39,105 bases of DNA. Origin: a virus. Taxonomy: Duplodnaviria > Heunggongvirae > Uroviricota > Caudoviricetes. Positions 3,001 through 6,000 of this stretch are shown here, one piece after another. Every line of letters starts with the position of its first letter. Position 1 is the first letter of the stretch. Position numbers: made by a program. Where the stretch lies: the IMG/VR virus record IMGVR_UViG_2609459852_000013. The stretch is one strand, 5' to 3'.

Positions 3001-6000
3001 CGGAGTTGTCACTCAGGCGTATGGTCAACCTGACAACCCGGTGTCCTCAACGGGGAAGGAATAACCCCGCCATACTTACCGCCGCGCCATTTCGCGGAGT
3101 GCCACAACCGGAAGCGCACGGTCGACGAAAATTTAACGACAGGCTATCTATGAACCAGCAACCTCGCCGTGCGCTTTCGCGTTATGCTCTGACTTTTCAG
3201 AGAAATATCCTTTCAGTAAACTGTCAGTGCCGGATGTTCACCCGTGGAGAACTCCTTAATTACCAACCCTCAGGAGGGTGAATGTTAAAATCAACTCTTA
3301 TTGCTAAATGCCTTTATCAAAATCGCATGGTAAGCAGCATTTCAATAGGCGAGTCTGCAGTTAAAAGTATTTTCGAAGAGTACTTTTCCGGGCATGATTT
3401 TAATAAATGGAATACCAAATTACCGCCAGCAGTTTCAACGCGTATTCTGAAAGCAACTGAAAGAGCAAGTACAATTCGCGTTAACTATTTCATTAAAGAT
3501 TTGTGGGATCTTTGATATCCACAGAGCCTAAAGTATGTGCATATGGATGTGCTATTGTGCGCCCTCGCAGATTTGCATCATTTTCTAAATTCACTGAACG
3601 AAACAGGGCATCAACAAGGCTCTGTACAATGCAAAGGCAATCGAAGACTGTCGCCGTTTCTGTTTTGATTGATGAAAGAACATGGCCATTCACGCAAACA
3701 GAAATTACCCGTTTATTAACATCGCTTTCCTGCTTTTGATTATCAGAACCATATAGCCCAGAAAAAGCATTGCGCACATTACGAACCATATTATCGATGG
3801 TTTCTTTTTTGGTGTATGCCGGGTCAATTTTCACCAGACTATCACCGAGTGTCGTTGCAGCAATTATCTGGATTTCTTTTGGTAAATCTTTAAATTCCAT
3901 TATTAGCCTCGTTGGTTAACCATTAACGTGGGTATGTAATCATTCTGGCAATGCTTAATGCCGCTGCTTTTTCCAGATTGGTGATATCCTGCTCCAGAGC
4001 GGACAGATTTTCAGCCTGCTTAGCCCTGGCTTCATTGGCCCATTTCAGGTCCTGCGCAGCCTTAATTTTCTGGTGCATCCACTCATAAAGTTCATCATCG
4101 GTATAGTCTGGCGCGATGATGACGGGTTCTCGTTTCTGCATACTGATTCCTCGCGGTGCTGCTTCGCTTATCAGCCGTTAGATTTTGCCGGGCTGGAAAG
4201 CGCCTGTATAAACTCACTGAAGCTGAGAGCTTCTTCGCCTTTGGCAAGGCCTTCGAAGTATTCTTCGTAAGCCTTTTCCATGATTGTGTCGAAATCCATA
4301 TCACTCACCTGAGTTTCTTTCCAGCCAGCGACGGGCACCATTTTCGGTTTTAAACGTTTTGCTTTTGGTATACGTCATCGCGGTGAACGTACCGTCCTGG
4401 TTGGGGAACACGCCACATACCAGAGATTCGTTGTTGCCAAGATCGATAGTATCCATGCTGACCTCATTTCCCCTTAACGCCGGGGTAGCGGAACAAAAAC
4501 CTGCTGCATAGTTAAAGTTGAACCCTGCCGTCATGTTCTTACGCCTCGGGCTGGCTACTTAACCCCTGACCACTGCCGGGTAACTCGAAGTATTTCCCTG
4601 CGTTCTGTGGGGCGGGGTGGGTTGGTATTTTAGTTTAATAAACATTAAACTTAAGTCAAGTAAAAACTAAACCGCGAAACATAACAAACACAACGCTTTT
4701 GATAAAGTCGTTGCGGTTGTTATGTTTCTATTGGTAGTGAAAGTTAGGGAAACTGGCGTCTTGCGTGGATCACGTTTACTACTTCAACGCTTGATGTTGT
4801 TACGCGGTATAGAATTATATAGTTAGGGTGGGCTACAATCTCACGCAAGCCAGGTACTCTGTCGCTTGGTGGGTATAAATACGGATGTTCGGATAACGGC
4901 AGCACACAACCCCTTAATCGCTGCCATAAGCGTTCAGCCGCATCTATGTCGAAACGAGCAATATAACTAGTTATATCATCTAGGTCGGTATCTGCGCTTT
5001 CAAGCCATAACACGGGTAACATTTTACTGCTTGCTCCGTTCCTTGCGCATCTTAGCAAAGCGTTCTGCCATTCTGCGCTCAACTTCGTCATGGGGAATTG
5101 CTGGGCGCGGATCTGCAAGGCTCGTTGCTACTTTCGCACGCAGCCATTCGTTGTAACTGTTTTCTTGTTCAATGGTTTCAAATTCAGAAACCATTGGTGA
5201 AAGGGCTCTATTCATGTTTCCTCCGGTTTTATAACTCAGGCGCGGCGGCATTTTTGCGCCGCAATCCATCTCGCTATGAGATCTTCCATTGATTCTTTTT
5301 TCTGCTTTAACTCGCTGATTATCTGGCGTTGCTCATCCTCAGGGAAGGCTGAAAAAATCTGCAATAATTCCAGTTGATTAGACGTTAACCCTGCATGTGG
5401 TGGAGAAACCCCCGGTTGTTCTGCGTATTCCGCATCCAGATACCCTTCCGGCATCCCGTATGTTTGCTCTATTCTTCTGGCAGCCTTTTCTCCAAACGAG
5501 GCTCTCCCACTCATTAATTGAGATAGGTAGCTCTTCTCTTTGGGTGGCAGAGTTTTATCTTTAAACCACTCCTTGAGACGTAAACGGCGAATTTCTTTTT
5601 TTTGCATGTGGTAATTATCTTTAGTAATCACTAAACAAGCAAATACTTGACTTAATGGTTTATTAAACACTAAACTCGCAAAAAAAACACTAAACCGAGG
5701 AAGGTATGACATTAAAAGAGTTTATTAAATCATTAAGGGTTGGTGATGCTAAGAAATTCGCGGCCAGACTTGGTGTATCGCCATCTTACTTATCGCAAAT
5801 GGCGTCTGGACGAACAGCTATATCTCCAACCCGCGCCCTTATGATCGAATCTGCGACGGAAGGCCAAGTAAGTAGGGCGGAGCTACGACCCCATGATTGG
5901 GAGCTTATTTGGCCTGAGTATGCGAGCGGCATTCGTTTGGGGCAAACACATGTTGTTCATGCTGAAGGTGATTGTAGTGCATGCTTATCTGATGGAGTTG

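Follow-up and report, generated by a model that had tools for sequence, protein, structure and literature searches.

The window, which is the whole stretch of 39,105 nt that was analysed, carries a regulator gene and a toxin-antitoxin pair on one strand, in the order paaR2-paaA2-parE2 with the regulator first. An OR-type control region separates paaR2 from the rightward genes ydaS and ydaT, and an OL/PL-type control region lies beyond parE2 (Table 1). The gaps between the genes are only 20 nt (paaR2/paaA2) and 1 nt (paaA2/parE2), and all three share a strand, which fits a single operon. There is a GGAGG 5 nt upstream of the paaA2 ATG, and the parE2 ATG comes 1 nt past the paaA2 stop (TAA-A-ATG). 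A preliminary description of this DNA had placed a three-gene minus-strand operon at 4744..5607, and its reading frames are exact to the base. Longer mechanical ORFs for the first gene (158 aa) and the third gene (124 aa) were rejected as extensions upstream of the true starts. What this DNA shows directly is the anatomy of the genes, the identities of the proteins, the copies of the operators and promoters, and the hairpin described below.

Table 1. Features of the immunity region, and its differences from E. coli O157:H7 strain F6294 over 4560..5720
Feature	Position	Strand	Description or basis
paaR2	5236..5607	minus	123-aa HTH repressor, N-terminus MQKKE
paaA2	5024..5215	minus	63-aa antitoxin without DNA-binding domain
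parE2	4744..5022	minus	92-aa ParE-family toxin
OR-type control region	5608..5705 (98 bp)		Divergent promoters PRM and PR; sequence, repeats, promoter scan (PR)
PRM	-35 TTGCTT 5642->5637, 17-nt spacer, -10 GATAAT 5619->5614	minus	By eye, from spacing to ATG
PR	-35 TTGACT 5647..5652, 18-nt spacer, -10 TAAACT 5671..5676	plus	Promoter scan
OR operator repeats, half-site GTTTAGTAA	CTTTAGTAATCACTAAAC 5619..5636; GTTTATTAAACACTAAAC 5658..5675; right half-site 5687..5695		Repeat search
OL/PL-type control region	4625..4675		Left of parE2; promoter scan and inverted repeats I2, I4
PL	-35 TTGACT 4659->4654, -10 TAAACT 4637->4632	minus	Promoter scan
OL operator copies	GTTTAATAAACATTAAAC 4633..4650; right half-site 4664..4672		
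Putative intrinsic terminator of paaR2-paaA2-parE2	4660..4728	minus	25-nt-arm hairpin 4676..4728 (inverted repeat I1), then U-rich tail GCGGUUUAGUUUUUAC
ydaS	5706..6008	plus	100-aa HTH protein, Cro analogue; Pfam YdaS_toxin and HTH_3, weak P22_Cro match
ydaT	6005..6430	plus	141-aa POU-type HTH protein, CII analogue; Pfam YdaT_toxin
YdaT operator OM TTGATTCATGAAAATCAA	5998..6015		Spans ydaS stop and ydaT start, at PRE-type promoter region
Difference: one T fewer	run 4628..4631		Near PL start
Difference: two substitutions	4677 and 4678		Lengthen hairpin stem
Difference: one non-synonymous change			PaaR2 V67 (O157 G67), interdomain linker
Difference: one synonymous change			Leu codon
Difference: one extra A	run 5679..5686		paaR2-ydaS spacer 98 bp against published 97 bp

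ParE2 is identical to PDB 5CW7_B over 92 of 92 residues and matches Pfam PF05016 (ParE_toxin, E=1.9e-16, 60.9 bits against a cut-off of 23). PaaA2 is identical to 3ZBE_A over the 62 aligned residues (62/62), and to 5CW7 where aligned. Pfam places it in PF21217 (PaaA2, E=1e-19; score 70.7 bits, cut-off 27) and reports neither an HTH nor an RHH family for it. These identities bear out the 63-aa antitoxin and ParE-family toxin that had been predicted. PaaR2 residues 1-66 are identical to 7NKV_A / 8C3K, and 7NKV was deposited as 'Phage repressor protein CI'. The similarity search against PaaR2, PaaA2 and ParE2 that the preliminary description had proposed thus returns identity over the aligned residues, which for PaaR2 are 1-66. 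Crystal structures are published for all three proteins. An Rfam search of the operon gave no described RNA.

No Pfam family matches PaaR2 at E<=0.01, and because of this CI homology cannot be claimed for it. PaaR2 had been called a CI-like repressor. This stands for its function and position, but it fails for homology, as there is neither a Pfam family nor an autocleavage domain. PaaR2 is CI-like by function and position only and is not a member of the CI family. It has no RecA-dependent autocleavage (peptidase) motif and is unresponsive to mitomycin C (PMC8630535). By sequence identity and anatomy we assign the locus to the paaR2-paaA2-parE2 family. It is almost certainly this known three-component type II toxin-antitoxin system, sitting in the immunity region of a lambdoid prophage.

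Operators, promoters and a terminator-like hairpin

PRM escapes the consensus promoter scan, since its -35 TTGCTT shares just 3 of the 6 consensus bases. A weak hexamer is in keeping with PRM933P, described as weak and stimulated by PaaR2 (PMC8630535). We placed the +1 of PRM at the A of the paaR2 ATG, 5607. The -10 ends 6 nt ahead of that ATG and there is no Shine-Dalgarno sequence, as read from the DNA. This geometry would fit a leaderless mRNA. The paaR2 start region is identical to the O157 sequence that was used for 5' RACE and N-terminal sequencing. There the transcription start is the start codon and the protein begins MQKKE (PMC8630535), so the leaderless start of the preliminary description has experimental backing on near-identical O157 DNA. 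A promoter-like site within parE2 (5003->4975) is no better than chance and was set aside.

The PRM spacer is itself a palindrome, TTTAGTAATCACTAAA, with related 18-mers at 5658..5675. A family of 11-nt repeats has two copies in 4640..4672 and three in 5626..5695. The exact heptamer ACTAAAC occurs four times in the 39-kb window, always within 4666..4672 and 5630..5695. Over the window as a whole, 4 copies against an expected 2.7 is no excess over chance, and the signal is only the clustering in the two operator regions, not the count. The PR region recurs in inverted orientation at PL (arms 4633-4656 and 5645-5668), and the hexamers TTGACT and TAAACT are common to both regions. OL and OR are about 1 kb apart. 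The operon is therefore flanked by OL-like and OR-like motifs, as had been proposed, with the repeats and promoter hexamers at 4625..4675 and 5608..5705. Divergent PRM and PR with repeated operators and a second operator set at PL are the marks of a lambda-type switch, and all of them are present in the sequence.

A hairpin at 4676..4728 sits between the parE2 stop and PL. Folded as minus-strand RNA, the 91-nt segment 4655..4745 around it gives -29.6 kcal/mol (z = -5.7), a value that none of 200 shuffled sequences reached. A4677 and A4678, which are GG in O157:H7, extend its stem in the window. By analogy with t_imm in lambda, we suggest that it probably terminates the operon transcript. The word 'terminator' is absent from the main paper on this locus (PMC8630535).

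On the rightward side, the published YdaT site TTGATTN6AATCAA (PMC9986795, Acta Cryst D 2023) has a single match in the window, the exact one at 5998..6015. On the leftward side, the first genes downstream of PL lie on the minus strand at 4301..4534 and 3923..4141 and encode a DUF1391 protein and a ydfC-like protein. These first genes include no evident N-type antiterminator, and dicB is annotated further left in the relative.

Published counterparts of the locus

The DNA of 4560..5720 is 99.5% identical to many E. coli O157:H7 genomes. Alignment with O157:H7 strain F6294 gives six nucleotide differences over this interval (Table 1). PaaA2, ParE2 and YdaS are identical to the O157:H7 proteins, PaaR2 differs only at residue 67, and YdaT is identical at 121 of 141 residues (86%). 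The match to paaR2-paaA2-parE2 of O157 prophages had been proposed from layout, and it now rests on proteins that match the O157:H7 structures as well as on the DNA. For the paaR2-paaA2-parE2 of CP-933P / Sp12 in E. coli O157:H7 the reference is reportedly Hallez 2010. The same locus was studied in CP-933P of O157:H7 EDL933 (Jurenas 2021, mBio; PMC8630535). CP-933P / Sp12 has the same genes, order, operators and promoters as the window. It differs in that CP-933P lies at the ynfA site with a frameshifted integrase, whereas the window prophage belongs to the serT/yccA site, has a contractile tail, and has a relative with an intact integrase. The window is not CP-933P itself, as the integration site and late genes differ.

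Much is known about the O157 locus (PMC8630535). The 97-bp O157 spacer holds four 18-bp repeats with the half-site GTTTAGTAA. PaaR2 and YdaS both bind this spacer by EMSA and protect 78 bp and 65 bp from DNase I respectively. Each represses PRM and PR, and low PaaR2 stimulates PRM. PaaR2 represses PR and PL more easily than it does the promoter of its own gene. Beyond the operon is the promoter PL933P with OL1-3, which PaaR2 and YdaS repress about 100-fold. YdaT activates a PRE-type promoter, and CP-933P has a bistable switch. An unstable mini-F plasmid is maintained by the locus as well as by ccdAB. Single-cell work did not detect ParE2 activity in either transcriptional state. For the leaderless start, for DNA binding and repression, for bistability and for the stabilisation of plasmids, the demonstrations come from DNA 99.5% identical to ours. 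ParE2 toxicity, PaaA2 neutralisation and addictiveness are published for identical proteins (PMC8630535), and by that identity would be properties of the proteins here too. The 5' RACE, EMSA and toxicity assays that the preliminary description suggested have therefore been published for the O157:H7 locus, with favourable outcomes. The stabilising effect it foresaw is likewise published for plasmids (mini-F). Its placement of the operon where lambda has cI-rexAB agrees with the literature, in which paaA2-parE2 replace rexA and rexB, and PaaR2 replaces CI (PMC9986795). It must be noted that the operon, the leaderless repressor, the operators, the likeness to cI-rexAB and the addictive behaviour are all already published and are not new.

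The likeness to lambda cI-rexA-rexB is one of arrangement. Two accessory genes are co-transcribed with the repressor in each case, and the repressor mRNA, leaderless in lambda, is by the O157 data presumably so here. In both, divergent PRM and PR share operators, a second set lies at PL, and Cro and CII analogues lie rightward. However, no protein here resembles its lambda counterpart in sequence, so the region works alike but is not homologous. There is no RecA-stimulated autocleavage domain in PaaR2, and a toxin-antitoxin pair takes the place of RexAB. Four 18-bp repeats are reported against the three operators of lambda, and OL and OR here stand about 1 kb apart.

Other toxin-antitoxin systems are like this one in part. 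Two-gene parDE systems (RK2, Vibrio cholerae parDE2) also have a ParE-fold toxin neutralised by a labile protein antitoxin, but PaaA2 has no DNA-binding domain and regulation here falls to a separate repressor and the prophage switch. Another O157:H7 prophage, CP-933M, has the homologous three-component system paaR1-paaA1-parE1. This system has another regulator and another immunity context, and it is absent from the window. In the H53 genome there is a paaA-parE pair of 85.6% identity that lacks the paaR2 portion, and we infer it to be the paaR1-paaA1-parE1 paralogue.

The host prophage and the spread of the cassette

The window is 100% identical to a prophage of the non-O157 strain 10035776-3 (NZ_CP159170.1), save for an IS679 insertion there. 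That prophage lies between yccA and tRNA-Ser/hyaA (the serT site). Its integrase is intact, its head is of HK97 type and its tail is contractile. The prophage in the window is apparently near-complete.

The IS679 element (IS66 family) of NZ_CP159170.1 is missing from the window. It would fall at window position ~2244..2252, at the end of the exonuclease gene, where the two BLAST pieces overlap by 9 nt in a way that resembles a target duplication. The late region, 18997..39105, has a P27-type small terminase, an HK97-type protease and capsid, a contractile tail (sheath 26540..28036, tube 28036..28392) and Mu/P2-like baseplate genes. Joined to a lambdoid early region this makes a mosaic. One tail gene next to the baseplate genes is annotated as truncated in the relative.

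The Q-type antiterminator gene (12811..13563) is separated from the lysis genes by a tRNA cluster at 14358..15829. The members of the cluster are Gly-CCC, a CAT-anticodon tRNA (annotated Ile in the relative), Arg-TCG and Arg-TCT. A tRNA cluster in this place is typical of Stx-type lambdoid phages. The prophage has a second toxin-antitoxin system, a type I hok/sok module at 10978..11303 on the plus strand (Rfam sok, 119.8 bits, 10978..11153). The relative has hokD annotated at the corresponding position. Upstream of hok/sok in the early-right region, two minus-strand genes at 9289..10698 are opposed to their neighbours. They encode a 304-aa DUF6731 protein and a 159-aa hypothetical protein, and the pair looks like a moron.

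High-identity sharing among the window, the O157 prophage and phage Evi is limited to window ~4467..6445 (~2 kb). This is the pattern of a mobile immunity cassette. At least 80% of 4560..5720 is held, at >=97% identity, by 595 of 5426 complete E. coli genomes (11%). Evi is a coliphage isolated from infant faeces that carries the cassette. Its record (LR597642.1) annotates paaR2 and paaA2 and leaves parE2 unannotated, although an intact frame at ~14826..15104 encodes a protein equal to ParE2. Since the cassette is in Evi with an intact ParE2, the module is not confined to defective prophages.

A model for the immunity region and its alternatives

We propose that the weak PRM would give a leaderless transcript from the ATG of paaR2 itself, and hence PaaR2. 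PaaR2 would sit on GTTTAGTAA-type half-sites in OR (5608..5705) and OL (4625..4675) and turn off PR and PL. PR would otherwise drive ydaS-ydaT and then the replication genes, and PL would drive leftward transcription. At low level PaaR2 would stimulate its own promoter. The Cro-like YdaS would compete for the PaaR2 sites, giving a bistable switch, and the CII-like YdaT on TTGATTN6AATCAA (5998..6015) would activate a PRE-type promoter, from which transcription also enters the operon. The repressor transcript would run on into paaA2 and parE2, so a lysogen would always make ParE2 and PaaA2 together, and it would probably end at the hairpin at 4676..4728, just before PL. ParE2 would be stable and PaaA2 labile, degraded by ClpAP/ClpXP. 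If the immunity region were lost or replaced, ParE2 would be freed to cause nucleoid-associated damage and an SOS response, and in this way the cells would be addicted. Nothing in the window sequence contradicts this explanation. The operon would presumably be active in this particular prophage, with its 1-bp insertion in OR and its V67 linker variant, either of which may have an effect. Addiction was demonstrated on plasmids, and addiction to a chromosomal prophage would be an extrapolation from them.

The preliminary description also raised exclusion of other phages, and one can imagine a scenario where paaA2-parE2 serve mainly for Rex-like exclusion or abortive infection. An invader would perturb PaaA2 and ParE2 would kill the cell early. 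The pair shares the position of rexA-rexB and is co-transcribed with the repressor, PaaA2 is labile and protease-sensitive, and one review implicates toxin-antitoxin systems in phage defence (PMC10532202). We consider this unlikely as the main role. The phenotype is unreported in PMC8630535, there is no homology to RexA/RexB and only the position is in common, and 0 of the 3 operon proteins match a PADLOC defence model. PADLOC gave nothing for the five immunity-region proteins beyond a marginal HTH match for YdaS, and no match for eight neighbouring proteins, including the pair at 9289..10698. An exclusion role would be compatible with an addiction role.

A different objection concerns PaaR2. 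An antitoxin may have been split, with PaaR2 as its separate DNA-binding half, controlling only its own toxin-antitoxin operon and not a lysogeny repressor at all. PaaA2 has no DNA-binding domain, and the first description of PaaR2 was as regulator of the toxin-antitoxin operon. However, the operator and promoter hexamers recur 1 kb off at PL, where they face the early-left genes. In published data PaaR2 acts on PR and PL in preference to the promoter of its own gene (PMC8630535), and the cassette moves with ydaS-ydaT in three different prophage or phage backbones. We regard this reading as very improbable. It is harder still to believe that the module in the window is a decaying, functionless remnant. 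CP-933P, the prophage in which the module was studied, is defective, but here all five reading frames are intact and identical or near-identical to functional alleles. The prophage retains head, tail, lysis and replication genes, the integrase of its closest relative is intact, and the module is kept at >=97% identity in 595 complete genomes. The lambda-type immunity region with a three-component toxin-antitoxin operon is the reading that we prefer.

What this analysis adds is context only: a 2-kb cassette that is mobile among backbones, common in E. coli, and present in intact-looking prophages and an isolated phage. The additions are small. They are a host prophage other than CP-933P, the spread to Evi and 595 genomes, a probable terminator hairpin and six nucleotide differences. 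Published work treated the module only within a defective prophage. A role for PaaR2 in live phages is possible because the cassette is in an apparently complete non-O157 prophage and in the isolated phage Evi. PaaR2 might then be a working lysogeny repressor of live phages without a RecA-cleavable domain, with PaaA2-ParE2 having a further phage role. This could be the killing of immunity-region recombinants or Rex-like superinfection exclusion. We offer this as speculation, with somewhat long odds against it. Since the cassette is found in intact-looking prophages and a phage, its role could be tested in a live phage instead of the defective CP-933P.
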